This document shows, in pieces, positions 25,244-45,471 of a DNA stretch of 64,000 nt. Below the pieces are notes generated by a model. That model had not been told where the DNA came from, did not search any database, and was given only the letters and a program-made list of their open reading frames with translations. How positions within the stretch are numbered: position 1 is the stretch's first letter; each line of letters starts with the position of its first letter. The translations under genes were made by a program, and so were the position numbers. Origin of the DNA: an uncultured euryarchaeote (GTDB taxonomy: Archaea > Thermoplasmatota > Poseidoniia > Poseidoniales > Poseidoniaceae); NCBI GenBank assembly GCA_964001175.1, contig CAXFAS010000004.1:7497-71496 (forward strand), read 5' to 3'.

Positions 25244-25545
25244 ATTTTTATGCCTCCTTCTTGTTATGCGTCATTAAGCCCCCAATTCCAAATCTAGCGA
25301 TGTAGTGATTTTGTGAAAATAGGCCATTGAACGGGTAATTAACTACGCAGGGATATAGATGTGTACGAACAGGTAGATGAATGTTTCGATAAAAACCCCA
25401 TAATATCCCGTAACATGAATGCTTCATATTGCGAATCATATACAACATATTCTTCGACAGTATTTAAAGAATAAGAACTACAACCAAAACACACTCCAGA
25501 ATTAGGAAAGCCTTCAATAAGTGTCGTACAATGTGACAATAGTTG

Positions 25546-25554
25546 AGAGGAGGC
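25546..25554 (+). promoter_or_regulatory. Shine-Dalgarno-like site (GAGAGGAGG) for the AddB-like gene
   Basis: GAGAGGAGG ends 6 nt before the ATG at 25561. This supports 25561 rather than the TTG at 25543 as the start. Confidence 0.5.
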
Positions 25555-25560
25555 TTGTCG

Positions 25561-28500: not shown

Positions 28501-29286
28501 GATATGATTGGGTTTACTTCAGAAGAGTGGAACTTGTATCTGCAAGGAGAAAAAGACTTACCTCCTAGGGGCAGAATTGGGAGGCTTCTAGAAGCCGATT
28601 TTTCTCTAGAAAATTCAGCCCCTATAGCCTGTGAATGGGTATTATCCATGGATAGTAAAAATAGTGTATCGCTACAATCTAAATCAGATAATGGTTCATT
28701 AGTATCTTTTGAATTAACAGGTAGAATAGATCGAGTTGATTGTATAGTATTAACTAAAGAAATGCGAGAAAAAGCCATCTTAGACGGTATATTATCTGAA
28801 GATGAAACAAAACAACAAAGATGGATTATAATTAGAGACATGAAGAACATAAATGGTCCAAAGAAAGAGGATAGAGGAGACCGCCATCGAAGAGCTATAT
28901 TTGATGAAGTGCAATTAGGGTTATACGCTAAAGCATGGGAAATCGCTTATCCAACAGATAGAGTTGTAGGTGTTGGTATTAGCGAGATAGGTGAAACAAC
29001 GACTCATTATGTTGAACTTGATTCAAGCGTTAAGAAATATATTCAAGACTTATCAATAGGGGAAATCACAGATTATACTTCTCTCCATCATCGTCCACTA
29101 TTCGATAAAGAATTTATATCGAGTAACGGATTTAGGTCCTGGATGGATGAACGTTTAAGGACATCTGCAAGGGTGATTGAACACTCTAACTCCGGTTTTG
29201 CTCAACCAGTTCCAGGAAAACATTGTTCATATTGCTCATCACGAAGAATGTGTCCTTCTGCATTATTGGGAGGTGATGAGAATTGA
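25561..29286 (+). CDS. addB: AddB/RexB-like helicase-nuclease subunit (inactive helicase-like scaffold plus C-terminal Cys4 PD-(D/E)XK nuclease)
   Basis: There is no Walker A in the N-terminal region. The C-terminal RecB-family nuclease motifs are TGRIDRVD, IIRDMK (D-x-K) and QLGLYAKAW (QxxxY). One upstream Cys (WLKCPRQAW) and CSYCSSRRMC (Cx2Cx5C) bracket them, as in AddB/Cas4 Fe-S nucleases. The gene is translationally coupled to the UvrD/AddA-like gene. Confidence 0.75.
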   Translation: MLDGKQKANISIEATPSGKSLPDWLFESLASNQSREVIIIYPNESSRKSALNKLADVTSYIDSSKHMTIQRLFDTLHLDFRLPSKMQDDALLFSIVHQRTQQHAHNGQLPLMFSPIKGRIWSEYKTERLQSLHRELSELKSPWRWENDPGVKEFHNILKKIEQQTNSTYPDLMKSNLLERLNFAVQEKEVPFSLSGVEGIIILDHAPDFSEINRLLLQKISRITPIHQLCNPGSFRLGFHGAFVEDIEWCDETTIPKWIPKHEVWRYPKQANWISPVGKLRSTQIHRISLERKHHNIDTTFQLIKNYLSSNDGKVIVIDAGLKHNSRAWKSRLNDMGIICDSKAKTLIEQPSIAGLITLLQIGDGLEAWSFEKFRRLIENNGLPIEFSSFNELIHATEKGWKPKPHLDILEKISRSFHVLGGPGALRRWLKTLENAKPIIGDDIELVRQKLEETQWWLANICRLWAPLYEEAKDYSNESFIGCSTGSKLPLIEELSHGNNWINEIYRSINWKRLTLLDAEYSNSITGLQKLIEEHHRLMFSLNEIGLKTPNSGEDFIRHLMKIIRKTKLSNSRLESANVKVLTPLEAFGLEADLIILSGLDVDSWSMKAPKIPWLDSESRLQLGLLNSDIEIRKGRHHLKHFLNASETVVILDTSEDESVGPAAPLVEFLEDAKRSKQFQQLSIIPSFISENEYDESNLDRSWDLKSQAEEEPNIWLTPRPYSMSMGDSGAIGHRSGFRGRDARQRTGLNLASGRKVTTRPISINNLASAHEFSIYNDRLIRQPSHKNINKEEYLPWESRELMVSVDDLTMRPTKSQVIIGSKDAKEWPHLGMKGSRSKGPAIDPRPLPMFDSGSESIQSITGFISQPIIRKKWSASRIQSWLKCPRQAWLEKHLGARELEQPTEDIDDRVRGLLVHDIEGAILEEHGIKIAGEPSKITLPLSKGPLDTIEKVWKVALNYLELNAEWLTRSNAVAHHRCRDMIGFTSEEWNLYLQGEKDLPPRGRIGRLLEADFSLENSAPIACEWVLSMDSKNSVSLQSKSDNGSLVSFELTGRIDRVDCIVLTKEMREKAILDGILSEDETKQQRWIIIRDMKNINGPKKEDRGDRHRRAIFDEVQLGLYAKAWEIAYPTDRVVGVGISEIGETTTHYVELDSSVKKYIQDLSIGEITDYTSLHHRPLFDKEFISSNGFRSWMDERLRTSARVIEHSNSGFAQPVPGKHCSYCSSRRMCPSALLGGDEN
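29269..29286 (+). promoter_or_regulatory. Translational-coupling junction: GGAGG, then a TTG start overlapping the TGA stop (aaTTGA)
   Basis: GGAGG lies at 29269-29273. The TTG at 29283-29285 overlaps the TGA at 29284-29286. The Walker A motif begins at codon 23 of the downstream ORF and no in-frame ATG precedes it, so the TTG start is required. Confidence 0.6.
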
Positions 29287-32200
29287 TTCCATTCAATAAT
29301 AGTCAAAAATTAGGATTAGATTTGGATAAGCATATTGCTTTAGATGCAGGTGCAGGTACCGGAAAAACCGCAGTTATGGCAGAAAGATATGTTCAACATT
29401 TAATCACTCCAGAACAACGCGCAACAATTCTATTACCGAAAGGGCCTAGAAAACCATTAGAGGGCCATGGTGCTCTAAGGGCCCCTGCTAGAGAAAGAAC
29501 TGAACTAGGCGACTGGTCCGGTCTATTGCCGAATGAAGTCGTAGCGATTACATTTACTAAGAAAGCAGCATCTGAGTTGAAATCTAGAATCCGAAAAAGA
29601 CTAGCACTCACTCGAACCTTGGCAGATTCTAATAAGGAAGAGGGTATTTACGACCCTAGGATTCGTCGTTCAGGAGATTTAGAAATGTTACTTTCGGGGC
29701 TAGATGAAGCGCCCATTTCCACCATTGATGCTTTTCTCTCTCAATTACTTGCACCACACTTAGATTTAGTGGCTGTAAATCCTACTAGAGAACAAATTTC
29801 CGAAGTAAGGTCGCCGTTGTTGGTAAAGGAAACCATACACTCTGCATGGCGAATTAGGACAATCAATGATGCTAGAGAAGCCGGGATTAAAGGAGACATT
29901 GGAGGATTCATTGCTGCAAGGAATAGACTCGCAATTTTAGTTGGTGGGCAATCGAGGGCAGAAGTAATTCTGACTGGATTATTGAATACATCTTTATTTG
30001 TCGATGAATCTAAACGTTCCTTGAAGAAGAGAAGTAAACTAAAGGGAATTAATTGGGACGGGGTCTCTGCAATTGATTCAGAAATTATTCTTGAGATGTT
30101 CCTTGAGCCAGCCGCTGATATTATCGATAGTTTTGCTGATAAATTACATTTTGAATTGAATAATTGGGTTGACCAAATTCTACTTCATCCTAATGAATTA
30201 GTTTTAGCTTGTGAAACAGAACAGGGGACTAGAAGCACCCGATTTAATCAATTAGTTAATCTGGCTAGACATTCTTATCCATCTTCAAAGACAGATAGGT
30301 TACAATGGGTATGGATGGTTTCTTTAGCCGCTGCATCATATTCCTCGTTGATAAAAGATGGAATGACATTCTTCCCTAAAGGAGGTTTACCCCAGCCCAA
30401 TCATTGTAATGAATGGATGCCAGGATTGTTTCCCAAGTCTAAGGTTAGAGGAATTACGGGCAAGGTAAAGGATTCAATTTATGAAAATTTGAAAAATATA
30501 GCAGCAAAAATGCATGAACATTTGGCAAGTAAAAATGGACGTCTAGTAAGATTACTTGGGCGTAGTTCATATTTATTCAACCCAATATTTAATTTACAAT
30601 TTATGGATTCAGATTGCCCACTGATAGCGCATCCTTTATCCAATGAATTTAGCGACATTGCTCCACAAGGTAAATTACGAATCACAGATGATCTGCAGAC
30701 AAATGTATTAGCAGATTTGTTGTTGGTTCACAACGGGTGTAAGGAGATACTAAACTTAAAGAAAATAAATGAAGGAGTTCATGATTTTGATGATACTCAA
30801 AGGCTGGCTGCGGATTTACTCCTTGCTCGGTGTCCTGACTCGGTTCGTTATGAATATCCGCAAAGTGTAGTTGAGGCATTGGATAGTTTAGATGATGAAC
30901 CTTGGTTAGATCTACATATTTCAGCGGCATTAACAATAGCCCAAGAACACCCAAGTTGCTTTGAAGACTTACAGAAAAGATTTCAGGTACTTCAAATGTT
31001 AAGAAGAAACTTTAGTGCATTCATTATTGACGAATATCAAGATACTAATCCCGCACATTTTAGACTATTGTCACGTCTATGGGGGCGAAGAAGTCGTTTA
31101 GCAGACGACCCGTCTTCCCCTATGGGGCCGTGGGACCCTACAGTATGTATTGTGGGCGATATGAAACAGAGTATCTATCGATTTAGACAGGCAGAAGTAA
31201 CCGTCATGCTAAGAACAGTCGAGGCAATAAAAAATATCAATTATACAGAACAAAGTGAATCAAGATTAAGCCATTTGAAGAAAGCCAACCATGGTAGAGA
31301 CCCAAGACCAGTTGGGGCGGGAGGAGAAATAGGATCTTTCTCCAATCAACATCCTCCATCTGGAACAAAATTAGAATCAAAGCCTTGGGAACATGTACCT
31401 GTTGAGTTTGAAGATTCAAGTGGCGACACTAAAAAATATGTTCAAATATCTCCCGAGCGAGTAAAAAGAAGATTACTCGGCCATATCGATTTAACTTCTA
31501 ATCATCGTACTTTGCATAATTTGATGCTAACCATGAATGGAATTTTTGAAGATGTTTTTGCTAGTCGGCATTATGTTCTTCCAGGAGATTGGCATGCAAA
31601 ATCTCAAAATTTAAAACCGGCTCGCAAAGATGAAAATAAAGGGGTTTTGGAATGGTTATTACCTTTACAAACAAATGTAACTATACCGACAGCTGATTTG
31701 AATAATCCAAATAATGTTTTTTCAGATCCGAATGCTAAAAATATCCATCTTGAACATGAATTAATTGCGCTAAGACTTCACAGTCTTCTGACAGAAAATA
31801 ATCCAAAGGTTTGGGATAGTGAAACAGCCTCATTCAAAGAGATTGAAAGTGGCACAAAAAATATCTTGCCAAAGGATATTATGATTCTCGTTCACTCTCG
31901 AAAACATATTCCTGATTTACTACAGAGGCTCGGCAATAAAGGGATACCTGTCATCTCGGATAGACAAGGAGAATTACTAAAGCGACCAGTCATTAATGCC
32001 TTAATGTCGGTTTTACATTTAGTCGCGTACCCCAAATCAAAATTTGCAGCGATTTCTTTTGCTCGCTCACCGATACTTGGATTTACTGATAAACAAGTAA
32101 ATACAATGTTTTCTGAAATTAAAAACTCAGATAACTGGTGGGATGTAATTACAAAATATGCACCATGTAGTAGAAGTAAAAATCTTATCGAACATCTGAA

Positions 32201-34283
32201 AAATCTTGTAATTAAGGGCGGAGTTCACGAAATATTAGATGCTGTTTTAGACCATTCAGATTTACTAATTGCATTCCCAGACGATACCTCTAGGCAGAAT
32301 GCAGAATTATGGTGTGGCTTAGTGTACAATATTGGGCGTGAGTATGGACATGACCCAACTGAGATATATTCTCACCTTAATTCACTTCAAAGCCTAGGTA
32401 ACAAAGGTCCGCAAGCAATTACCATTCCATCCGGTGGAGCAGTTAGAATTATGACAATTCATGGTGCTAAAGGTTTACAATCAAAAGTAGTTGTTGTAGC
32501 AGGGATGTTCCATGCAGGAAAATCAGACTCATCACTAGCGTCTAGAAATAATGTTCTAGTAACACCAGAAATAGTTGCAGGTCGCATTAATCCATGGTCT
32601 TCAAGAGATAGGCCTTATGATGGGCTTTGGGAATTTGCCAAAAATATGGACTCAGCCCAAAGACAGGCAGAACGTAGAAGAGAATTTTATGTTGCATTGA
32701 CTAGAGTTAGAGACCATCTAATTGTGGTCGGAACTCCAGATAAGAATTGTCAAATAGATTCTAAATCGAATAATTTGAAATTTAAAAGCAAACCATCTCT
32801 AAAGACCATGGGTTCGATGTGGATGGATGGACTTAGAAGTCTATCTCATTCCAATCAAGTAAAAGATTCTCCATGGCTTTTACCAAACGATCGATTCGGC
32901 GAAGAATTAGACACATATAGTGAAACCCAGGTAGAAATTAATCCGTTTGCAATATCTAATGATTCAATGCTTGGAGCAGATTCAATCAAATCACTTCGTG
33001 TATTTCATTCACCAGAATGTTTTGATAAGAATAACCTAATCTCTCCTCTAACCAAATGGCAGAATATAGAATCTAGATTGGATAAATTATCTGCTGAAGA
33101 TAAATCTAACACAGATTCAGAGGATGATAATATTGCAGTAGGGCATACTATTAGGATGAGTGCCCATAGTCTTGATACTAGTTTCCAGTGTAAGCGCAGG
33201 CATTGGTTAGAACAGGTTAAAGGATGGAGTTCTGAACCCATCTATTTGATTAAAAATGAACATAATTCAATTGAACAAGAGTCAGTTTTTGTTAGCCCCA
33301 CACTATTTGGAACAATTGTGCATCGTTTGCTAGAAATCGGTTTAAAAAATCCTAGTAAAGTCAACGGCCCTCCAGTGATTCCTTTACCTTCTAGTTGGCA
33401 AAACGAGAATGATAATTTACTAAAAGATAAAAATTTAGTCGAGGAAGTACTTCGCGAAGAAGGTATTACTCAGAAGTCAACAGGCATAGAGAAGAAACGA
33501 GCGCTTGCAATGGAAGAAAGAATCTCTCAGATTTCTAACTTAGTAGATAATGGCCTTATTGGCAGATATGCAGAAGGAGAGGTCCATCACGACAGGATAC
33601 CGGAGGGGCTTAGAACCGAGTTACCATTTTTCTATCAACATGCGATTGAAATGAAAGATGTTTATAGATTGGGCTTTTCTATTGAAGGGATAAGAAGATT
33701 ATCAAAAGTTGAGAATACCAAATTCACATTTGATGGCAGAGCAGATTTGGTTCTTGCTTTTAGAGATAAAGATGGAATAGGATACTTACAAGTTGTAGAT
33801 CTAAAAACCACAGGGTGCCGGAATGATTTCAATTCAGAAGATCCAAAATCTGGGTCTCCACTACAGGTTGTTGAAGGTGACCTTTTGAGTAGATTCCCTC
33901 AAACTGCTGCTGAAAGACAAATCCTTCATGAGCATAGACTACAATTAGCTCTTTATTCAATGGCATTAGAGGCAATAGAACTAGATAAGTCTGAAGAATT
34001 GAGAAGAATAATTCTACCTCCAGCAATTTTGGTGGGGGCATCTGGAAGAAGTATTGAATTAACTCTAGACGAGTACAAACAAGCTAAAACTGATTTAGAG
34101 AATCATTTACTTTGGATGGCTGAATTATCCGCAGAAGCAAACTCTTTACAAGAACCAGACCGATTGGAAGGGCTTGATAATGCTACTTGTAAACAATGTC
34201 CATTTTATAGAGGAGACATCAAATTGTGTGGGCCCAAGCACTTATCGATTCCTTTAATCAAGAGTTCCTCTGACCAGCAATGA
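29283..34283 (+). CDS. addA: AddA/UvrD-family SF1 helicase with C-terminal Cys4 PD-(D/E)XK nuclease
   Basis: SF1 motifs: I GAGTGKT, Ia ITFTKKAASELKSRI, II IIDEYQDTN, III VGDMKQSIYRFRQA, V TIHGAKGLQSKVVVV, VI FYVALTRVRDHL. The nuclease module has GRADLVLAF, VVDLKT and QLALYSMAL. Its Cys residues are FQCKRRHW and CKQCPFYRGDIKLC. At 1666 aa it is very long for the family. Confidence 0.85.
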   Translation: MIPFNNSQKLGLDLDKHIALDAGAGTGKTAVMAERYVQHLITPEQRATILLPKGPRKPLEGHGALRAPARERTELGDWSGLLPNEVVAITFTKKAASELKSRIRKRLALTRTLADSNKEEGIYDPRIRRSGDLEMLLSGLDEAPISTIDAFLSQLLAPHLDLVAVNPTREQISEVRSPLLVKETIHSAWRIRTINDAREAGIKGDIGGFIAARNRLAILVGGQSRAEVILTGLLNTSLFVDESKRSLKKRSKLKGINWDGVSAIDSEIILEMFLEPAADIIDSFADKLHFELNNWVDQILLHPNELVLACETEQGTRSTRFNQLVNLARHSYPSSKTDRLQWVWMVSLAAASYSSLIKDGMTFFPKGGLPQPNHCNEWMPGLFPKSKVRGITGKVKDSIYENLKNIAAKMHEHLASKNGRLVRLLGRSSYLFNPIFNLQFMDSDCPLIAHPLSNEFSDIAPQGKLRITDDLQTNVLADLLLVHNGCKEILNLKKINEGVHDFDDTQRLAADLLLARCPDSVRYEYPQSVVEALDSLDDEPWLDLHISAALTIAQEHPSCFEDLQKRFQVLQMLRRNFSAFIIDEYQDTNPAHFRLLSRLWGRRSRLADDPSSPMGPWDPTVCIVGDMKQSIYRFRQAEVTVMLRTVEAIKNINYTEQSESRLSHLKKANHGRDPRPVGAGGEIGSFSNQHPPSGTKLESKPWEHVPVEFEDSSGDTKKYVQISPERVKRRLLGHIDLTSNHRTLHNLMLTMNGIFEDVFASRHYVLPGDWHAKSQNLKPARKDENKGVLEWLLPLQTNVTIPTADLNNPNNVFSDPNAKNIHLEHELIALRLHSLLTENNPKVWDSETASFKEIESGTKNILPKDIMILVHSRKHIPDLLQRLGNKGIPVISDRQGELLKRPVINALMSVLHLVAYPKSKFAAISFARSPILGFTDKQVNTMFSEIKNSDNWWDVITKYAPCSRSKNLIEHLKNLVIKGGVHEILDAVLDHSDLLIAFPDDTSRQNAELWCGLVYNIGREYGHDPTEIYSHLNSLQSLGNKGPQAITIPSGGAVRIMTIHGAKGLQSKVVVVAGMFHAGKSDSSLASRNNVLVTPEIVAGRINPWSSRDRPYDGLWEFAKNMDSAQRQAERRREFYVALTRVRDHLIVVGTPDKNCQIDSKSNNLKFKSKPSLKTMGSMWMDGLRSLSHSNQVKDSPWLLPNDRFGEELDTYSETQVEINPFAISNDSMLGADSIKSLRVFHSPECFDKNNLISPLTKWQNIESRLDKLSAEDKSNTDSEDDNIAVGHTIRMSAHSLDTSFQCKRRHWLEQVKGWSSEPIYLIKNEHNSIEQESVFVSPTLFGTIVHRLLEIGLKNPSKVNGPPVIPLPSSWQNENDNLLKDKNLVEEVLREEGITQKSTGIEKKRALAMEERISQISNLVDNGLIGRYAEGEVHHDRIPEGLRTELPFFYQHAIEMKDVYRLGFSIEGIRRLSKVENTKFTFDGRADLVLAFRDKDGIGYLQVVDLKTTGCRNDFNSEDPKSGSPLQVVEGDLLSRFPQTAAERQILHEHRLQLALYSMALEAIELDKSEELRRIILPPAILVGASGRSIELTLDEYKQAKTDLENHLLWMAELSAEANSLQEPDRLEGLDNATCKQCPFYRGDIKLCGPKHLSIPLIKSSSDQQ

Positions 34284-36024: not shown

Positions 36025-36858
36025 ATGGCCGAAGAAGGGACAATTACTCCTGAAGTTAGAATTCAAGCACTAGAAGAAGCATTGGCAACAGAAACTGAGC
36101 GAGTTCAGAAATTATTCGCTGCATACGAAGGCCAAGAAAAAGACTTGATGGATGCACGTGCTGAGATTGAAGTACTTGAAAAAGAAATCATTGAAAGAGA
36201 AATCGAGAAAGAGACTCAAGAAGCTCTTTTGTCTGAAAAGGAAGTTAGAATAAGAGAACTTGAATTGCGTGCAGTAAAAGCCTCAAAGAAGGTTGAACAC
36301 CTTGAACCTGAACTAGAAAAGATGGAAGAGAAGTATTCTCGTGAAAAAGATCGTCTAGGTAAAATATTCAATATCGCAACTGAACTTGATGATGATTTGA
36401 AGTTGGCAGTATCTGAAATGAAAGCTAGAGACGATTGGTATGTCGCTCACATGTCATTATTCGAAGATCTAAATAAAGCAATAAAGGAAAGATATGAAAT
36501 GATTGAAAGAGCGGTTGAATCCGAAAGAAAATCACAACATATGGCTCGTGCATTTGATGAGAGAATGGAAGAAATGGTTAGCGCCAGAGCTGCAGAGATG
36601 ACGCTGGAAGAAGCTGAAGCAACTGTTAATACCAAAGAATCTGTTAAGGCTGATGAAGATAAAGATTACAATGAAAAAGAAGTCGATCAAGCAATTGAAG
36701 CGGCTACTGAGGAAGCGACAGAAGAAGCAGAAGTAGCAACTGAAGAAGCGACTGAAGAAGCGGCTGAAGAAGCGGCTGAAGAAACTCCAGAAAAAGAAGC
36801 AGAGCCAGCACCTGCGCCTACTTGGGGAGATGACGAAGATCCTTGGGCCGATAATTAG
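36025..36858 (+). CDS. Acidic coiled-coil protein with TEEA/AEEA repeat tail
   Basis: 277 aa with heptad-like E/K/L-rich sequence throughout. The C-terminus has (A/T)EEA repeats and ends in WGDDEDPWADN. GGGTGAG lies 4 nt upstream of the ATG. The function is unknown. Confidence 0.55.
   Translation: MAEEGTITPEVRIQALEEALATETERVQKLFAAYEGQEKDLMDARAEIEVLEKEIIEREIEKETQEALLSEKEVRIRELELRAVKASKKVEHLEPELEKMEEKYSREKDRLGKIFNIATELDDDLKLAVSEMKARDDWYVAHMSLFEDLNKAIKERYEMIERAVESERKSQHMARAFDERMEEMVSARAAEMTLEEAEATVNTKESVKADEDKDYNEKEVDQAIEAATEEATEEAEVATEEATEEAAEEAAEETPEKEAEPAPAPTWGDDEDPWADN
36697..36783 (+). repeat. Imperfect 12-nt tandem repeat (GAAGAAGCGRCT-like) encoding the (A/T)EEA low-complexity tract
   Basis: The sequence gaagcgacagaagaagcagaagtagcaactgaagaagcgactgaagaagcggctgaagaagcggctgaagaa can be read directly from the window. 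Confidence 0.7.
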
Positions 36859-37772: not shown

Positions 37773-38939
37773 ATGGCAGCCCCAAAATCATTAACTTTAG
37801 TTGGAGATGGTGGTAAAAGCGCTAGAATTCATGACTTGATTAAAGCACCAGCCAATACTCCTTGGGCTAAAGCCAAGCAACAATCTTGGGATGGAAATGA
37901 ACCTGCAACAGTATATTACACTCCAGAAACTTTGGCAGATGGTACGCAGTGTACGGCTATAACCGTTATTTTACGTACTAAAGGTTGCCATTGGTGGTGG
38001 TCAAGTGGGTGTACTTTTTGCGGATATTTTAACGATACTAGAGATGATGTTACCAGTGAAAATTTACATGCTCAATGGAATAAGGCAAAACTTGATTTTA
38101 ATAATTTTGAAAAACACAAGATGGTGAAGGTGTATACCTCGGGTTCTTTGTTAGAAGACAGAGAAATTCCAGTTGATTTTCAAGAAACCGTCCTTCGCGA
38201 ATGTCATGAAATGGGAAAGGAACTGATTGTCGAGAGTCGTTGTGAGCAACTTACTGAAGAAAAATTACAATGGGCAACTTCGATAAATCCAAATTTTTCA
38301 GTAGCAATTGGATTAGAAGCATATGACGACGAAGTTCTTCGTTTCCATGTGAACAAAGGATTTACTACTAAATCATGGGATAGAGCAGTTGCTAACTTGC
38401 AAAAATTCAATCTTAGAATTAAAACATATTTGATGTTTAAGCCACCGTTCATGAGTGAAAATGATGCACTTGAACATGGAGTGAAATGGATTTCTGCCGT
38501 AGCAGAAAAGAGTGACGAAATATCAGTAAATCCAATGAATATACAACGAGGAACGATAATTGATAGATTACATCGAAACAATGAGTATAGGCCACCTTGG
38601 CTATGGTCTTTGGTTGAAATGATTCGTCGAGCACATCCGATTATTCACCCCAAAGGAGGAACCAATGGTGATGAAGATCAGATATCCAGGTTGATTATTC
38701 ACCCCACAGCAGGTGGTAAAATCAGGGGCGCGCATAATTGTGGTACTTGCGACAGCATGGTGGTTTCAGCAATCGAAAATTATGCTGTATCAGGTGATTT
38801 GGCTGAATTTGATGGCTTAGATTGTGAATGTAAATCTATTTGGGAAGAGGAATTATCTTTGGAGTCAGATTTACCTATACCACTAGGTGTTTCTAAGCCT
38901 CGTAGAGGAAATTTGATTAATCGATTACGTTCTTTTTAG
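37773..38939 (+). CDS. Radical SAM protein, TIGR01210 / RaSEA-like (archaeosine biosynthesis-associated family)
   Basis: VILRTKGCHWWWSSGCTFCGYF matches my memory of the family's unusual cluster motif (ilrT.GC.w...gGC.mCGy). The length is compatible with the family. The assignment is from memory only. Confidence 0.55.
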   Translation: MAAPKSLTLVGDGGKSARIHDLIKAPANTPWAKAKQQSWDGNEPATVYYTPETLADGTQCTAITVILRTKGCHWWWSSGCTFCGYFNDTRDDVTSENLHAQWNKAKLDFNNFEKHKMVKVYTSGSLLEDREIPVDFQETVLRECHEMGKELIVESRCEQLTEEKLQWATSINPNFSVAIGLEAYDDEVLRFHVNKGFTTKSWDRAVANLQKFNLRIKTYLMFKPPFMSENDALEHGVKWISAVAEKSDEISVNPMNIQRGTIIDRLHRNNEYRPPWLWSLVEMIRRAHPIIHPKGGTNGDEDQISRLIIHPTAGGKIRGAHNCGTCDSMVVSAIENYAVSGDLAEFDGLDCECKSIWEEELSLESDLPIPLGVSKPRRGNLINRLRSF

Positions 38940-39015
38940 GGCTAAAAACTAGTCAATCTTTATCACTACTCTCCAAGTGGACAGATTGACCCCTACGGGG
39001 TCAACGGGTGAACAT

Positions 39016-39288
39016 ATGTCGAATAACACAATTCTGCCAGATACAACAGTTGGAACCGGGCAGCCTACATTTGGAAGAGTATTACTAACTTTGATTTTAG
39101 TTGGAATTATTGGATTATTTGCATTATTTACTAATGTTTTCGGCTGGGACTCAATGCCAATAATCGGTGACATTGTTCCTTTGGTTGGTAATCTCGGAGG
39201 TAGTGGAATTTGGTACTATCTGATTGGATTTTTTATAGGAATTGGCATTATTGTAGCTACCTTCATTGGTGAGGTAGTAGTAGAATAG
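39016..39288 (+). CDS. Small two-TM membrane protein
   Basis: Two hydrophobic helices (LLTLILVGIIGLFALF; IWYYLIGFFIGIGIIVATFI). The ATG at 39016 is preceded by GGGTGA; the ORF-track GTG start is at 38977. It lies directly upstream of the EF-hand membrane protein. Confidence 0.5.
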   Translation: MSNNTILPDTTVGTGQPTFGRVLLTLILVGIIGLFALFTNVFGWDSMPIIGDIVPLVGNLGGSGIWYYLIGFFIGIGIIVATFIGEVVVE

Positions 39289-39300
39289 GGGGTATGATTT

Positions 39301-41502
39301 ATGGAACCAGTATTTATTTCAGCAGCTCTTGTACTTGCCTCATTGATTGCAACATCTTATTTCATTACAAATGGATTAGGGACAATGGGAGAACCACTTC
39401 GACAATTTTCTTTGTTTTTGATGAATAAAGCGCCGGTTGGGTTAGTTGATTTATTCAGTGATAAGCCTGGAAGCGGTAGTCGTACTTGGATAAAATTTGG
39501 TTCCGGTTGGTTTCTTTTAGCCTCAATTTCCGGTTTTCTCGCTATTTGGCATAAATACGATCCAACTGCACTTGATTCTCTAGCTAGTATTGGTTGGTCT
39601 TATGATGATGGTTCTGCTTTACAGGACTTCACCATGGCTTCATTGAAGATGGCTTTCATCTATCTAATGGTTGGAGGAGGAATGGTTGCAGTTTCCCGTT
39701 CAGCTAATAATCGAATGGCTAGTGAAGCAAACGCTTCTATGGTGGCAGTAGTTTATACAGCATTGACTATTTTGAGTTTGATTTTACTACCAATAGTATT
39801 CTCATTCATCACAGTTTCAGATGAAGCTGGAAAGTTAGATCTAGTTTCGATGGTGATTAACTACGGTATTGCTTCGATGTTATTTACAGCAGTTTTGATT
39901 AATGTATTATCCACTTACTCAATGCGTAGAGATGGAACATCATCAGTTTCTGCTTGGTTCTTCATAATGGCATTGATGACAAAATTAGTAGCATCTACAT
40001 TCTATCTCTTTGGTGAATTTGCAGGCTCAACACAGACCGTATGGATGGCTGAACAAATGCTCAATGGCTGGGTCCCTCTAGCATTGATGTTTTCTGTAGC
40101 ATACCATCTCATACCCTTTACTACACAGAAACCAATTTGGTCTCATTCATTATTGAATGCTGGAATGGTATTGCTATTTGTTACAGTTCCGCCATTCTTT
40201 ATTGGAGAGGTTGATGCTGGTGAATTATTACAGAATGTAGGAGCGCTTCTTCTAACGTTTTCACTAATTCCAATACTTGCAAACTGTTTCAATTTACTTG
40301 CAACTGCATCTTCTAATTCTTCTGCCATTTTGAGAAATCCTGGGGCATTAGCAGCAACCCTTGCAATGTTTATATTACCATTATTCGCAGTTGGAGGCTA
40401 TTTCACTAGTATGGATACATTCACAGGCACCGATAAATTAGCAGACTTGGCTACTATGGTTGATAGTAGTTTCATGTTCACCGTTGGTGGTTTAATGATG
40501 GTATCGACTATTTTCGCATCCTATCCTCTTGCATCAGGAAATCAATTAGAAGATTCTTCGAGAGCAAATCTTGCAGTTTGGTTCATCTTATTTGGCGGTT
40601 TAGCCTCAGTTATTACAATGCTTATTGGCGGATTTACTGAAATCGCAGTTAGTGATTCTGGCGTTGAAGATGCCGTCGCCTCATCGTTAGGATTTTACTT
40701 AACCGCTTCAGCACTATTCTATCTAGTTCCTATCGCTTCAATAATGGCAATATTGGTGTTGATTAGAACTGGTAATTCCTCTAATAAGATTGAAGAAATA
40801 GGACAAGAGATTACAGATATCGATGTTTATGTGTTGGGCCAAGGAACAACAACAATCCAACAATTATTAGGTAGAGGAGTAGGAGTTACAACTCAAATTG
40901 TCGTTGGAGAATCTGAAGAAACAGATGGCGGTTCAACAGTCATTGGCGTTAATGCAGAATTACATAATGACGAAATTACAGAATTCCCAGAAGAAGAAAT
41001 TGTAGAGGAAGAAGAGGCAGAAGAAGATAAAGGTCCTGCTAAAGAATTAGTTATGCTTCTAGACTATCTTAAATCATCCGACAAGACAGTATTCGATTTC
41101 TTCCGTTCTATCGATTTAGATTCATCCGGAGAAATCGATAGTTTTGAATTCCAACAAGCACTAAAGAATAGTAATGTTGGTGACTTCCCTCCTTGGGAAA
41201 TCGATGGACTTGTCTCTGCTATTGACATCGATGGTGACGGAAGAATTAACCTTCCAGAATTAGATATTTCACTTGCTAGAATCGCTGCTCAAATTTATCC
41301 TTCTGATGAAGAAGAAGCTTCTGAAGAAGTTTCAGAAGAGGGTGAAGAAGAGGCTGAAGAACAATCAGAAGAATCTTCAAAGCCTTCTGAAGCAGATTTA
41401 AACAAGATGAAGAAAAATGAACTTATTGAGGTAGCAAAGTCTCTTGGAGTTTCAACATCTGGAACTAAGAAAGACTTGATTGAAGCGATCTTAGCTGCTT
41501 GA
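39301..41502 (+). CDS. Polytopic membrane protein (about 12 or more TM helices) with C-terminal EF-hand pair and HeH/SAP-like motif
   Basis: 733 aa. Roughly the first 500 aa are hydrophobic helices. The soluble acidic tail carries two canonical EF-hand loops and ends in a Rho_N/SAP-like helix-extended-helix motif. Confidence 0.7.
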   Translation: MEPVFISAALVLASLIATSYFITNGLGTMGEPLRQFSLFLMNKAPVGLVDLFSDKPGSGSRTWIKFGSGWFLLASISGFLAIWHKYDPTALDSLASIGWSYDDGSALQDFTMASLKMAFIYLMVGGGMVAVSRSANNRMASEANASMVAVVYTALTILSLILLPIVFSFITVSDEAGKLDLVSMVINYGIASMLFTAVLINVLSTYSMRRDGTSSVSAWFFIMALMTKLVASTFYLFGEFAGSTQTVWMAEQMLNGWVPLALMFSVAYHLIPFTTQKPIWSHSLLNAGMVLLFVTVPPFFIGEVDAGELLQNVGALLLTFSLIPILANCFNLLATASSNSSAILRNPGALAATLAMFILPLFAVGGYFTSMDTFTGTDKLADLATMVDSSFMFTVGGLMMVSTIFASYPLASGNQLEDSSRANLAVWFILFGGLASVITMLIGGFTEIAVSDSGVEDAVASSLGFYLTASALFYLVPIASIMAILVLIRTGNSSNKIEEIGQEITDIDVYVLGQGTTTIQQLLGRGVGVTTQIVVGESEETDGGSTVIGVNAELHNDEITEFPEEEIVEEEEAEEDKGPAKELVMLLDYLKSSDKTVFDFFRSIDLDSSGEIDSFEFQQALKNSNVGDFPPWEIDGLVSAIDIDGDGRINLPELDISLARIAAQIYPSDEEEASEEVSEEGEEEAEEQSEESSKPSEADLNKMKKNELIEVAKSLGVSTSGTKKDLIEAILAA
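41113..41148 (+). other. EF-hand Ca2+-binding loop 1 (DLDSSGEIDSFE)
   Basis: It fits the canonical 12-residue loop: D1, D3, S5, G6, I8, D9, E12. Confidence 0.75.
41224..41259 (+). other. EF-hand Ca2+-binding loop 2 (DIDGDGRINLPE)
   Basis: It fits the canonical loop: D1, D3, D5, G6, I8, N9, E12. It starts 111 nt after the start of loop 1, which is normal spacing for a paired EF-hand. Confidence 0.8.
41392..41499 (+). other. HeH / SAP / Rho_N-like motif at the extreme C-terminus
   Basis: ADLNKMKKNELIEVAKSLGVSTSGTKKDLIEAILAA follows the pattern L..m...EL.e.Ak.lGv...g.KkdLIeaIl. Confidence 0.55.
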
Positions 41503-41515
41503 GGAGACTCTGTCT

Positions 41516-42799
41516 ATGCGCATCGGGCTGGTTGGAAAACCAAACGTGGGTAAATCTACTTTCTTCAGTGCCGCAACTTTAGCTAAAGTTGATATCGCTA
41601 ATTACCCATTTTGTACAATAGATCCTAATGTAGGTGTTGCTTTTATTGCTGCCAGAAAACCTTGTCCATGTAAAGATCTTAGGAAAAAACTCGAATCAGA
41701 AGGTAGATTAGAACCCGTTTCTGAAGATGATGAAAGAAAAGGCAGCATTTGCCAACCAAGAACAGGGTCTTGTATAGGCTATAGAAGATTAGTTCCCTGT
41801 TTTTTGGTAGATGTGGCGGGACTTGTACCAGGGGCCAGTGAGGGTAGAGGTAGAGGAAATGCGTTCTTAGCAGATTTAGCTAATTGCGATGCATTGATTC
41901 AAGTTGTAGATGCTTCCGCTTCAACAGATATTGAAGGTAATCCAATAGAACCTGCAAAGAATTCAGATACTGCCCATTCTAGTATTCAACAAGAAATATC
42001 TTTTCTAGGTGATGAATTAGATGCTTGGATTTATGGGATTTTGAATGATGGTTGGTCTAGAGGTGTTAGAAGAGTTCAAGCTGAAGGCGAGAAGGGGATG
42101 ACCTCTTTTTTACATGAAAGGTTTACTGGTCTAGGCTCATCTGTACAGACTATAAATCAAGCATTTGAACGCTTTAAACTAGTTAATCAGGATGATTCTC
42201 CACCTTGGGACTGGTCAGATAAAACCCTTAAGAAACTATCAATAGAGATTAGAAAATCGTTATTTCCAATTCATATCGCTGCAAATAAAGCAGATATTGC
42301 GCCTAAAGATTTGGTTTTTAATTTCGATATTAATGGTAGAATAGTTTCTTGTATGGCAGATATGGAACTGGCACTTAGAAGAGCAGAATCATCGGGATTG
42401 ATTAGTTATATTTCCGGCGAACAAAGTTTCCAAATTGTTAATCCAGGGCAACTTTCAGATGCACAAATTGAGGCTTTAGAACATATGCAAGAGAGATTGA
42501 GTGTAAATAAAAATACGGGAGTTTCAACCATTCTGGATATTGTTTTATTCGAAGAATTAGATCATATTGTCGTGTATCCAGTTCAAGATGAAAACCAATG
42601 GATTGACGGTGAAGATAGAATACTCCCGGATGCCTTTGTAGTTCCAAATAAAATTCAAGCTAAGAATCTAGCGTACAAGGTTCATTCCGATTTAGGCGAT
42701 GGGTTCATCAGAGGTACAGACGGGCGAAGCCGAAGAACAGTAGGGGCAGATCACGAATTAAGCGATGGCGATGTATTGAAGATACATGCTAAGAATTAG
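41516..42799 (+). CDS. Obg-family P-loop GTPase (YchF/OLA1-like) with C-terminal TGS domain
   Basis: G1 is GLVGKPNVGKST, followed by NYPFCTIDPNVG. G3 is VDVAGLVPGASEGRGRGNAFL. G4 is NKAD, the canonical GTP-type motif. The TGS-like end is DGDVLKIH. Confidence 0.8.
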   Translation: MRIGLVGKPNVGKSTFFSAATLAKVDIANYPFCTIDPNVGVAFIAARKPCPCKDLRKKLESEGRLEPVSEDDERKGSICQPRTGSCIGYRRLVPCFLVDVAGLVPGASEGRGRGNAFLADLANCDALIQVVDASASTDIEGNPIEPAKNSDTAHSSIQQEISFLGDELDAWIYGILNDGWSRGVRRVQAEGEKGMTSFLHERFTGLGSSVQTINQAFERFKLVNQDDSPPWDWSDKTLKKLSIEIRKSLFPIHIAANKADIAPKDLVFNFDINGRIVSCMADMELALRRAESSGLISYISGEQSFQIVNPGQLSDAQIEALEHMQERLSVNKNTGVSTILDIVLFEELDHIVVYPVQDENQWIDGEDRILPDAFVVPNKIQAKNLAYKVHSDLGDGFIRGTDGRSRRTVGADHELSDGDVLKIHAKN

Positions 42800-43182
42800 T
42801 GACCCTTTGGTCTATCATAAGCAGGTGTTAATCTAGCCATATCGCCAGCAAATTGGGTACTTCTAATGAAGAACCAAACCGGAGCAAATAACGTCAATAC
42901 GATTAGGATTAGTAGAAAATAAATACCCCAAGGTTTGACAGAACTAAGATACATTATCCATAATGTCCAAAGTACTGGAATATAGAGAAACATACTGTAT
43001 CTTCTTGCGACTACGGAAAGCCTAGCATTACGGAGTTTATCATCATACAAATTGACTGCTTCTTCTTTGGAAATTAGCTTTTGTTCAACAGCGCACCTAA
43101 CACAAACTTGAGCGCGAGGGCCATTTCCATGGATGAAATATTCTCTCGGATATGTAGCAGAACAAATCCTACAGGTTGGCAT
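42796..43182 (-). CDS. Small zinc-ribbon membrane protein
   Basis: The N-terminus has CRIC...CVRC (CxxC-x~25-CxxC), followed by two or three TM helices. It is 128 aa. Its stop overlaps the GTPase stop (TTAG). Confidence 0.5.
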   Translation of the reverse strand: MPTCRICSATYPREYFIHGNGPRAQVCVRCAVEQKLISKEEAVNLYDDKLRNARLSVVARRYSMFLYIPVLWTLWIMYLSSVKPWGIYFLLILIVLTLFAPVWFFIRSTQFAGDMARLTPAYDRPKGH

Positions 43183-43215: not shown

Positions 43216-45471
43216 TTATTCAAGCATCCGATTAATGGACAGAAAATTTTCTAATAATTTCAATCCATTAGGTGAGCCAATCGATTCAGGATGGAATTGT
43301 ACAGACATTATAGGTAATTGCTTATGTCTTAATGCCATTATTTCGCCATTCTCATCTTTTGCAGTGATTAACATTTTAGATTTAGATGAATCAATTTCAA
43401 TTGTCAAGGAATTATATCGAGTAAATAGTTGCGGACTTTCTAAATCTGCAAAAATCCCCTCTCCATCATGATGACATATTATCGGGGTTCCATGTATTGC
43501 CCCATTTGGAGATTTCTTCACAATTCCTTGTTCTGCAGCAGCCAAAGATTGGTGACCCAAGCAAATTCCTAAAACTGGGCAATCAATTTGACCGGCTAAA
43601 CAGTGTAAGGAAACTGCCTTTGAAAGTAATGAGTCACTTGGAGTTCCAGGGCCAGGGCCAATTATTATATGACTAGGATTCAATTTTTGTAATAGATTGA
43701 ATAAAGAACTAGGAGTGGACATTTCATCAGCAATTTTCCCTCTCCCACTAATCACTGTAACGTTATGACTTAGTCCCGCAATCGCATGAGCAATATTTAG
43801 AGTGAATGAATCAAGATTATCGATAAGTAAAACACCACATGAATCATTGTTATTATTCTCTTTCCATTGTTCGAATGTTTGTACTAAACCATTATTTTTT
43901 ATTGAATTAGTAAATTCTATCTCTAGCGGATGAATAGATAGTTGATTATTTTCCACTTGTTTTTGATCACTGTCAGTCCACCCACATGCAATTCTTAATG
44001 CATCAGCCTTCCAATATGTTTCCATTACCTCAGAATTAGAATCTGATTTGATTGTAATTCCACCACCAGAACCAACTTTTCCAAACCACTTGTTATTCTT
44101 TCTTTCAGCCTGAATAGTTCTGATTAAAATATTCCACGAACCATCTCCTGAATGAACATCAAACCAACCTGCTGAGCCAGTCCAGAAAGATCGTGATTGA
44201 TTTTCAATTTGATCTATTACTGCACAAACCATAGTTCTAGGACAACCTGTAATACTACCGCCAGGGAATATTGAATTGAATGCAGTCATACCATTTTCTG
44301 AATCTAGTAACCGACCTTTTAGATGAGAAACCAAATGTTGAACATTTGAGAAAGTTTCGATATCGAATCTTTCAATATTAACACTTCCAACTTCACAAAC
44401 GGCAGATAAATCGTTTCGCATTAGGTCAACAAGCATTCTATGTTCTGATCTTTCTTTGACATCTTTCGACATCATTTCTCGCAACCTTTCTGCTTCGATA
44501 GGGTCACTAGAACTCTTATATGTGCCCTTTATTGGAGAGGTGTAGATTTCACCATTCTGACTTTTAAGAAGACTTTCAGGAGATGAAGAGATTAGTGAAA
44601 AACCCAAATCATCGGCATATATCAAAGTTGAAAACGGGGCAGGATTTGAATCAAGTAATCGATTGAAAATCGTTTGTGGCGACTCAACGAGCCGACCAGA
44701 CCAAAATCTTCCAAAGTTAACTTGATACACCTGACCTTCTGAAATTCCTAATTTTATTTTTTCAATCATTTCTTCATGTTGTTGGTCGGTAAGAGAACTA
44801 ACCTCGTTAAATTCATTAGCAGGTTGAATAGGTAAGTCAATCTTTTGAGGATTATTTTCTATTACTAGTTCTACATGTTCTTTCCAGTCAGCATTTTTAG
44901 AAAATACTTGGAAATCATCAGTATTTTTTGATTGAGAAATATATTTGTCAACCAACCACAGTACCGCTAATAATTCACCTTCTTTTGGTAAATTTTGTAG
45001 TGATATTGGCTGGGTCCATTGAACCATATCATATGCAAAACTACCAGCCCAAAATGGTTTATTTGGATTAAATTCTTTAGGTTCATTTTCAAATTCCTGA
45101 TTTGGAGTTAAAACTTTTAATTGCTCAAATAAATCAGATAAATCATTAGCAGTAATTGAATTGGAGTGATACCAACACCCATGCCGCCATTCTTCTAATT
45201 CAGCAGTGAACGGCAACTTTTGATAATTTAATTTTAATTCTCCTTCAATAGGACTGTGCTTGTTTGAGGGTGGCATAACGGTTCTTGTTGGTTGACGAAT
45301 TAAAACTCGTAAATTACTTGGCCCACAAATCATTGACGAGTTTGACAGATGCGATTTTGGGCCACCGGAAATGAATAAAATTTCATCGGGAGAGCCGAAT
45401 TTAAACGCAGAAATTCCAATCAATTCATTATCTATCAAAGACTGTCTTAAAGAAACAATCTTGTCAACCAT
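43216..45471 (-). CDS. pabB: Aminodeoxychorismate synthase, fused component I (PabB, N-terminal) and glutamine amidotransferase (PabA, C-terminal)
   Basis: The chorismate-binding domain has SPIKGTYK (the PIKGT lysine typical of PabB rather than the TrpE PIAGT), MLVDLMRNDL, GGSITGCP and GSGGGIT. The C-terminal class-I GATase has LLIDNLDSFT, GPGPGTP, GICLGHQ and VQFHPES. Confidence 0.8.
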   Translation of the reverse strand: MVDKIVSLRQSLIDNELIGISAFKFGSPDEILFISGGPKSHLSNSSMICGPSNLRVLIRQPTRTVMPPSNKHSPIEGELKLNYQKLPFTAELEEWRHGCWYHSNSITANDLSDLFEQLKVLTPNQEFENEPKEFNPNKPFWAGSFAYDMVQWTQPISLQNLPKEGELLAVLWLVDKYISQSKNTDDFQVFSKNADWKEHVELVIENNPQKIDLPIQPANEFNEVSSLTDQQHEEMIEKIKLGISEGQVYQVNFGRFWSGRLVESPQTIFNRLLDSNPAPFSTLIYADDLGFSLISSSPESLLKSQNGEIYTSPIKGTYKSSSDPIEAERLREMMSKDVKERSEHRMLVDLMRNDLSAVCEVGSVNIERFDIETFSNVQHLVSHLKGRLLDSENGMTAFNSIFPGGSITGCPRTMVCAVIDQIENQSRSFWTGSAGWFDVHSGDGSWNILIRTIQAERKNNKWFGKVGSGGGITIKSDSNSEVMETYWKADALRIACGWTDSDQKQVENNQLSIHPLEIEFTNSIKNNGLVQTFEQWKENNNNDSCGVLLIDNLDSFTLNIAHAIAGLSHNVTVISGRGKIADEMSTPSSLFNLLQKLNPSHIIIGPGPGTPSDSLLSKAVSLHCLAGQIDCPVLGICLGHQSLAAAEQGIVKKSPNGAIHGTPIICHHDGEGIFADLESPQLFTRYNSLTIEIDSSKSKMLITAKDENGEIMALRHKQLPIMSVQFHPESIGSPNGLKLLENFLSINRMLE

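Follow-up and report, generated by a model that had tools for sequence, protein, structure and literature searches.

The haem-copper oxidoreductases (HCO) are among the best-studied membrane enzyme families. Conservation of their active-site histidines is complete in every family but gNOR, in which one of them is replaced by Asp (Murali et al., 2024; PMC11214002). The nitric oxide reductase (NOR) families are HCO scaffolds that were diverted from O2 reduction and are devoid of the active-site tyrosine (PMC11214002). The present analysis concerns a stretch of 64,000 nucleotides (the window, meaning this whole length) from an uncultured euryarchaeote of the Poseidoniaceae (order Poseidoniales; GenBank assembly GCA_964001175.1, contig CAXFAS010000004.1, positions 7,497 to 71,496 of the forward strand), in which one gene encodes a polytopic membrane protein (the large protein) and a short gene directly upstream encodes a second one (the small protein; coordinates in Table 1). 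The large protein is very likely homologous to subunit I of the HCO, with CcoN of the cbb3 type as its closest counterpart, and from its sequence it would be a catalytically dead, non-redox 'pseudo-oxidase'.

When the large protein was used as a single query against Pfam, NCBIfam and the Protein Data Bank (PDB), nothing was found for the membrane core within its first 500 residues, and its own sequence stayed below the Pfam COX1 threshold; the COX1/CcoN relationship was visible only through family-level profiles and relatives. When residues 1-520 were compared exhaustively with 1.84 billion representative proteins, a family of 93 clusters was obtained, reaching down to about 21% identity; with so few clusters, the family is therefore narrow. 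Pfam COX1 (PF00115, gathering score 34.8) was matched in three of the 26 diverse members scanned, among them P0150 (42 bits) and P0133 (43.2 bits), to which the window protein is linked with E=1.6e-33 and E=3e-54, respectively; P0133 carries COX1, an EF-hand pair (EF-hand_7) and a SAP motif on a single chain. A profile of 22 core sequences compared with all PDB sequences matched five chains, all of them CcoN; in the best match (E=2.4e-16), profile positions 110-443 are aligned with residues 61-408 of CcoN.

The structure prediction gave the same result. Thirteen transmembrane (TM) helices were obtained from hydropathy and from the AlphaFold2 model alike, where an earlier note on this DNA had given about 12 or more, and the model had a mean predicted local distance difference test score (pLDDT) of 77, with values mostly of 80-96 in the core. 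The top 50 matches of the model in Foldseek were exclusively HCO subunit I chains, of which the seven best were CcoN (E 1.4e-8 to 3.6e-8; TM-score 0.75-0.80, normalised to CcoN; root mean square deviation 4.1-4.4 A over about 480 columns), followed by ba3 enzymes, NorB (0.73-0.75), qNOR and aa3 enzymes. CcoN and the family share W...W at helix VI, a loop [YH]-x-[IV]-P...P-[IV]-[WY]-S-x-x-L, P...N in helix VIII and P-x-x-x-G-R. The oxidase resemblance pointed out in the earlier note, and called faint there, is thus real homology that proved strong by profile, by structure and by the relatives passing the COX1 threshold, and the segment quoted for it, QTVWMAEQ...LLFV, aligns significantly and in the very register proposed by the note with CcoN ...VQWWYGHNAVGF...MYYFVPKQAERPVYSYRLS....

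The residues required for catalysis were then located by alignment. In Pseudomonas stutzeri CcoN, we take H60 and H347 to be the ligands of haem b, H345 that of haem b3, H207, H257 and H258 those of CuB and Y251 the cross-linked tyrosine, a numbering that was checked against the aligned sequence strings. In the HMMER alignment, H60 corresponds to about F110 of the window protein, H207 to Q252, H257/H258 to F299/F300, H345 to V387 and H347 to S389, whereas Y251 falls on F293 in the local alignment and on P297 in the global one. The global re-alignment moves the helix VII equivalents to P297, a gap and E303, still without His. The low-spin haem ligands of helices II and X, the high-spin haem ligand of helix X, the CuB histidines (one of helix VI and two of helix VII) and the cross-linked tyrosine (helix VII in the C family) are all replaced, and from the sequence neither haem, copper or iron in a binuclear centre nor the reduction of O2 or NO is predicted. 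The absence of metal-ligand histidines had been noticed before, and extends to the tyrosine; together with the homology to CcoN, it supports the proposal made at that time of a degenerate HCO-like scaffold recruited for another function.

The same loss was found throughout the family. No ligand column was conserved as His across the 26 diverse members, the Y251 column held Tyr in no family member, the family alignment had no invariant His, and no conserved His, Met, Cys, Lys or Tyr was present at the ligand positions. Within residues 1-500 of the window protein, His occurs only as H84, H269 and H282, none of them conserved, and there is a single Cys. Stray histidines were detected at the former H207 and H347 columns in P0149, P0176, P0124, P0126 and P0139, with a maximum of two per member; in P0149 both columns are occupied, and these residues could be relics or the product of chance.

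That the protein is still a redox enzyme, with haem or metal bound by residues other than His or by ligands of the small protein, is most improbable. HCO active sites do vary, as the His to Asp replacement of gNOR shows (PMC11214002), and single ligand columns retain a stray His in some members, as those of P0149 do, but no candidate ligand is conserved, the six ligands and the tyrosine were all lost together, and the small protein lacks Cys, His and CXXCH. In addition, no electron-entry subunit (CcoO/CcoP, NorC cytochrome c or cupredoxin subunit II) is encoded adjacent to the gene, either at the window locus or in the distant clades.

In contrast to the core, the tail of the large protein was recognised directly by single-sequence searches. 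Two 12-residue Ca2+ loops, DLDSSGEIDSFE (residues 605-616) and DIDGDGRINLPE (residues 642-653), lie 37 residues apart, and both are flanked by helices in the model. They follow the EF-hand pattern of D (position 1), D, N or S (3 and 5), G (6), a hydrophobic residue (8) and E (12). Pfam models EF-hand_1, EF-hand_5, EF-hand_6 and EF-hand_7 all scored above gathering within residues 597-653, with 30.8 bits for EF-hand_7 (cut-off 30) and 30.7 for EF-hand_1 (cut-off 25.4), and the best PDB matches of the whole protein were calmodulin C-lobes (E=2.4e-7, residues 592-654 against calmodulin residues 81-141). The canonical pair of EF-hands described in the earlier note was thus recovered, and its loops are conserved in homologues: among the 223 members with loops, positions 1, 3, 5, 6, 8 and 12 are kept in 98-100% (D at 1 in 100%, D or N at 3, G at 6 in 98%, E at 12 in 100%).

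The C-terminal motif, read in the same note as HeH/SAP-like, is matched at residues 699-731 by Pfam SAP (PF02037) with 33.3 bits (cut-off 23.9), and by Rho_N (PF07498) with 22.8, just under its cut-off of 24.9. Its consensus, L-x-K-[ML]-K-K-x-E-L-x-x-x-A-x-x-x-G-[VL]-x-x-x-G-T-K-x-D-L-I, spans about 35 residues, of which L700, K702, K704, K705, L708, G716, G721, T722 and K723 are nearly invariant in the SAP-bearing relatives, and its helices 705-715 and 723-732 were modelled with pLDDT 84-89. No other SAP motif occurs in the window.

The tails of 305 unique full-length members, a biased sample, were then classified. Two EF loops plus SAP were present in 152 members and two EF loops without SAP in 71, while 17 had SAP only and 64 had neither; SAP is therefore found in 169 members altogether. 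The tail-less forms belong to the Thalassarchaeaceae (Marine Group IIb, MGIIb), to 'marine group II/III' and to related metagenome-assembled genomes (MAGs). As many members have no such tail, the essential function of the family can be neither Ca2+ sensing nor the binding of nucleic acids, and both would be at most accessory. The architecture had been regarded as unusual for an archaeon and its conservation in related MAGs had been left to be checked: the fusion of EF-hands and SAP to a membrane protein is real, but it is not the oddity of one archaeon, the gene being conserved across the order, and SAP and, in some clades, the EF-hand pair as well are dispensable.

Two further features of the tails were observed. 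The tripeptide EEE ends 92 of the 305 unique members, whatever the tail type (for example P0124, P0149, P0153, P0154, P0160 and P0164, and the proteins of loci L022, L052 and L065), and also ends a neighbouring coiled-coil protein (see below) in one clade (L081/L083); it may be a recognition motif. In P0158 (857 residues, a cluster of 10 members), a coiled coil of about 200 residues separates the EF-hand pair from SAP, which again points to a flexible tail built in modules, as a device of spacer and tip.

The side of the membrane on which the tail lies was examined from the topology. CcoN helices 2-11 align with helices 3-12 of the window protein, and therefore its helix 2 corresponds to CcoN helix 1 and its helix 1 is an addition. 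With 13 helices and the N-terminus outside, the inner loops contain 12 Lys and Arg residues against three in the outer loops, which are acidic. The C-terminus of CcoN is cytoplasmic. From this charge bias, the number of helices and the agreement with CcoN, the N-terminus is predicted to be out and the C-terminus in, with the EF-hand/SAP tail in the cytoplasm; a tail outside the cell had been considered in the earlier note to make a nucleic-acid tether unlikely, and the tail was placed inside. An extracellular tail in which the Ca2+ loops form a dockerin-like module for cell-surface attachment would find some basis in the Pfam Dockerin_1 matches of five members (best E=0.047). These matches are far below threshold, whereas the EF-hand models are above theirs, and neither the predicted topology nor a SAP motif, which is not expected outside the cell, fits such a module, so that it has very little probability.

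In catalytic oxidases, conservation is dominated by the metal-binding helices. In this family, the cytoplasmic loops reached 2.38 bits per column, the TM segments 2.15 and the outer loops 1.95, and selection would thus appear to have shifted to the cytoplasmic face. The most conserved segment of all (2.74 bits per column) is the cytoplasmic loop of the N-terminal module, whose invariant residues include G25, F39 and W63. A second motif, G-x-T-T-I-[RQ]-x-L-L-G-R-G-V-G-x-[DT]-T (residues 515-531), follows the last TM helix and is kept in all clades including the tail-less ones, with G515, G526 and T531 invariant or nearly so in every clade. It was modelled as short strands with pLDDT below 60, and probably needs a partner or the cytoplasmic loops in order to fold.

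The interior of the membrane core was inspected for a possible conduit. The residues that we take to form the cbb3 proton pathway (T215, S240, H243, Y251, Y317 and E323, P. stutzeri numbering) align in the CcoN profile alignment with L260, L285, G288, F293/P297, P360 and G366, all hydrophobic or Gly/Pro, and therefore the ancestral pathway is not kept. This replacement, the very few conserved charged residues inside the membrane and the lack of similarity to any transporter family in the Pfam and NCBIfam scans make it rather unlikely that the dead-oxidase core serves as a conduit for ions or small molecules (for example H+, Na+ or Ca2+), reusing the cofactor cavities or old channels and gated by Ca2+ through the EF-hand pair. 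Such a conduit would nevertheless agree with a universal core and an optional tail, as a core activity with optional regulation, with the few polar intramembrane residues that are conserved (N201, T205, N331, T335 and Y474), and with the fact that EF-hand regulators are common on polytopic channels and carriers.

The small two-TM protein was encoded upstream of the large one in all 80 Poseidoniaceae loci and also in the clades of P0150, P0226, P0177 and P0164 (loci L081-L086), in which the large protein is only 21-27% identical, and its gene always ended 4-15 nt before the large gene in the loci examined. Motifs LP[DE], PL..[NE]LG.S and W[YF][YF] are kept in it, and it had no Pfam or PDB match. 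It is most likely a membrane partner of the large protein, as the earlier note had suggested and as its position would indicate, which is the same in all loci examined, even where the large protein is only 21% identical. It might be a relic of the two-TM anchor of subunit II, a possibility that was considered. Its start was assigned to the ATG at 39016 and not to the GTG at 38977 because a GGTGA lies 4-5 nt before the former.

The coordinates of these and neighbouring features are collected in Table 1. The small gene ends 12 nt before the large one, and the start of the gene for a YchF-related GTPase lies 13 nt past the stop of the latter. As both gaps contain sequences similar to a Shine-Dalgarno (SD) element (GGGGT in the first, GGAGA in the second), the small, large and GTPase genes are probably co-transcribed. 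Upstream of the small gene, the putative promoter box is kept as GAAT[GC]TTTAT[CG]AC in the related loci sampled, and a perfect stem of at least 6 bp is present at the place of the leader hairpin in 73 of 84 related loci; in one distant clade (L084) a hairpin of other sequence occupies this position. The leader hairpin matched no Rfam family, and may be a 5'-terminal stem-loop of the mRNA or a regulatory site.

Table 1. Positions, strand and description of the features discussed (numbering of the window, except for the homologues in loci L085 and L081).
Feature	Position	Strand	Description
Small ORF	39016-39288	+	90 aa with two TM helices; probably the membrane partner of the large protein
Large ORF	39301-41502	+	733 aa; 13 TM helices, EF-hand pair, C-terminal SAP/HeH motif
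Family-specific N-terminal module (residues 1-63)	39301-39489	+	Extra TM helix 1 and conserved cytoplasmic loop with amphipathic helix; outside the CcoN alignment
12-TM core (residues 64-492)	39490-40776	+	CcoN-homologous, without metal ligands; by profile against PDB, Foldseek and model
Post-membrane cytoplasmic motif (residues 509-535)	40825-40905	+	Conserved family-wide
EF-hand pair (residues 592-654)	41074-41262	+	Ca2+ loops at 41113-41148 and 41224-41259
SAP/HeH (Rho_N-like) motif (residues 699-731)	41395-41493	+	Pfam SAP
TATA-like promoter element CAATCTTTATCAC	38954-38966	+	After the stop of the upstream RaSEA gene; promoter function inferred
Leader hairpin TTGACCCC-TAC-GGGGTCAA	38986-39004	+	Perfect stem of 8 bp, loop of 3 nt
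SD-like GGGTGA	39006-39011	+	3' of the leader hairpin
YchF-related GTPase	41516-42799	+	Ygr210-like G domain and TGS; NCBIfam NF007171, 421.6 bits
Acidic coiled-coil protein	36025-36858	+	Conserved neighbour; homologues in 72 of 80 loci
Coiled-coil homologue in L085	264-944		
Coiled-coil homologue in L081	790-1476		
Zinc-ribbon-like protein	42796-43182	-	128 aa
Giant ORF 1	25543-29286	+	1247 aa
Giant ORF 2	29283-34283	+	1666 aa; overlaps giant ORF 1
Chorismate-binding/amidotransferase fusion	43216-45471	-	751 aa

The neighbours in the window were an archaetidylserine decarboxylase, the archaeosine enzyme RaSEA and the YchF-related GTPase, identified with Pfam and NCBIfam, and the coiled-coil protein; the first three assign the window to the archaea. 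Within the Poseidoniaceae, the 80 loci are collinear over the whole region, and synteny there is therefore uninformative, so that distant clades were needed to separate linkage from inherited order. The alignment search for such clades matched that of P0150 alone, and the contexts of the other clades come from direct look-ups. In the distant clades, the order RaSEA, small gene, large gene was kept despite differing outer flanks (window span 37773-42799). The YchF-like GTPase gene was adjacent in all 80 loci of Marine Group IIa (MGIIa). In the distant clades it came next on each contig that continues beyond the large gene (that of L086 ends first). A functional coupling of the large protein to this ribosome-associated GTPase is possible from such an arrangement.

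The coiled-coil protein was likewise found in the distant clades: it is 53% identical over 171 residues (E=9e-59) to its homologue at L085, in the most divergent clade, where the membrane protein is at 21%, and is thus the better conserved of the two. It matched no family, only generic coiled-coil models (SMC, Rad50) being hit far below threshold, and in MGIIa it ends in W-x-D-x-x-D-P-W-A-[DS]-[NE]. At L085 (clade of P0177), the membrane protein is tail-less and the coiled-coil protein ends in a SAP motif instead. As SAP can be on either gene, the module has therefore moved between neighbours, hinting that both act together. A complementary distribution of SAP was not the general rule, since 24 loci carried the motif in the large protein, a single one in the coiled-coil protein and 50 in neither.

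Respiratory genes were adjacent to the large gene in no locus examined. Marine Group II (MGII) archaea are reported to respire with canonical low-affinity cytochrome c oxidases (PMC6336850), and therefore the large gene is additional to a genuine oxidase. An alternative is a non-catalytic accessory, assembly or regulatory subunit of the Poseidoniales respiratory chain (of the cytochrome c oxidase or of an unusual complex III), through which Ca2+ would modulate respiration. Dead paralogues often persist as partners of active relatives, and in this case the fold is precisely kept, with an HCO surface retained for helix-helix packing, and the hosts respire aerobically and possess canonical oxidases (PMC6336850; PMC6461757). 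However, the neighbours of the gene are RaSEA, the YchF-like GTPase and the coiled-coil protein, the core is closest to the C family while the host oxidases are described as low-affinity (A-type), and a SAP motif has no obvious respiratory role, so that this alternative was considered unlikely.

Other genes of the window were also noted. The zinc-ribbon-like protein has an N-terminal CxxC...CxxC motif and two TM helices, lies beside the GTPase gene in 79 of the 80 Poseidoniaceae loci and had no family match. A PD-(D/E)XK nuclease domain is present in the first giant open reading frame (ORF), while the second combines a UvrD-type helicase with PD-(D/E)XK, and the pair looks like a bacterial AddAB-type helicase-nuclease in an archaeal genome. 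In the 751-residue protein, a chorismate-binding enzyme domain is fused to a class-I glutamine amidotransferase (PabB/PabA- or TrpE/TrpG-type) behind an N-terminal extension of about 225 residues without Pfam match.

With respect to distribution, relatives are encoded in at least 269 species-representative genomes of the Poseidoniales, and the 80 loci kept all belonged to MAGs of this order or to MAGs loosely labelled Thermoplasmatota/Euryarchaeota. A pseudogene was discarded, since the ORF is intact in all loci and 46-86% identical across the 80 species genomes; by this pattern the gene is evidently under purifying selection. Members are named 'hypothetical protein' at NCBI, while JGI names one of them 'Ca2+-binding EF-hand superfamily protein' and uses, for some of the distant members, the labels 'cbb3-type cytochrome oxidase subunit 1' and 'heme/copper-type cytochrome/quinol oxidase subunit 1'. 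The literature as searched contained no description of this family, although Poseidoniales-specific modules with calcium-binding domains have been noted (PMC9258230).

The role that we tentatively favour, at somewhat less than even confidence, is that of a non-redox pseudo-oxidase scaffold with a two-TM partner, equipped by its tail to sense Ca2+ and to bind nucleic acids; our confidence in the role of tether or sensor, taken alone, is lower still. The complex would be a membrane scaffold whose working surface faces the cytoplasm, its most conserved parts being the cytoplasmic loops, the N-terminal cytoplasmic loop and the post-membrane motif. In the lineage of the window, a flexible acidic tail would add the calmodulin-like EF-hand pair and the SAP/HeH motif, and so would make the scaffold a Ca2+-responsive anchor for DNA, RNA or a nucleic-acid-bound partner at the membrane. 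That the EF lobe might dock on the amphipathic helix 27-42 is pure speculation. A more specific version, a Ca2+-regulated tether between membrane and nucleoid, is unlikely as a joint proposal: the CcoN-like core and the two-helix partner would form a platform at which chromosomal DNA is held reversibly by the EF/SAP tail, and in some clades this anchoring would fall to the coiled-coil neighbour, which can carry SAP.

Several points weigh against the favoured role. The function of the core is entirely inferred, and the bias of conservation to the cytoplasmic face is modest. EF-hands and SAP are both missing in 64 of the 305 members and SAP in another 71, and SAP/HeH motifs do not always bind nucleic acid. 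Finally, the residue equivalences in helix VII disagree between the local and global hidden Markov model alignments, although neither of them has His there.

What is new is the ligand-less HCO subunit I that is fused to EF-hands and SAP and has a small partner of its own, the superfamily itself being known. A family under purifying selection in which the fold is kept with none of the seven catalytic residues implies that this scaffold can be reused for a non-redox purpose and, if the tether between membrane and nucleoid were true, it would be the first member of the HCO superfamily with a purely non-redox role. The hosts are uncultured and among the most abundant planktonic archaea, and if the oxidase labels given by JGI were taken at face value, ecological inference would wrongly assign high-affinity oxidases to Marine Group II archaea. 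Archaeal Ca2+ signalling could also be approached through such a conserved EF-hand protein of the cytoplasmic side, and contacts between membrane and nucleic acids through its SAP motif.

Compared to known systems, the core of the window protein has the 12-TM fold of CcoN (e.g. P. stutzeri, PDB 3MK7 chain A) in the same in/out orientation with a cytoplasmic C-terminus, but with an added N-terminal TM helix and a cytoplasmic tail of 240 residues carrying the EF-hand pair and SAP. CcoN has the cytochrome c partners CcoO and CcoP, whereas the window gene has none beside it, and C-family (cbb3-type) oxidases are mainly bacterial, whereas this family is archaeal, from the Poseidoniales. The superfamily fold is also shared with NorB of cNOR and qNOR and with eNOR, bNOR, sNOR, nNOR and gNOR. 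However, these retain the haem and metal histidines, gNOR being the first reported to replace even one, and the window family, which retains none, would therefore not be a NOR. The halobacterial family fam02696 is reported as another archaeal, lineage-specific and remote homologue of HCO subunit I without Pfam or KEGG annotation, but it co-localises with cbb3/NorB-type genes in Halobacteria (PMC9258230), whereas the window family is not beside respiratory genes and, by its description (Poseidoniales, EF-hand/SAP tails), is set apart from it.

With the calmodulin C-lobe, the tail has in common two canonical loops in predicted helix-loop-helix pairs, but it has one pair and not four hands, its Ca2+ binding is a prediction, and acidic disordered linkers join the pair to a polytopic archaeal membrane protein. 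The motif of about 35 residues at its end is shared with the SAP/HeH/Rho_N motifs of SAF-A, PIAS, the Ku70 C-terminus, the Rho N-terminus, Heh1/Heh2 and MAN1. As in the HeH/LEM proteins of the inner nuclear membrane, it is carried by an integral membrane protein and faces the compartment of the DNA, although there is no evidence of descent from these eukaryotic proteins, the window motif is optional and its nucleic-acid binding is only predicted. If the tether between membrane and nucleoid were true, it would be an archaeal functional analogue of these eukaryotic proteins.

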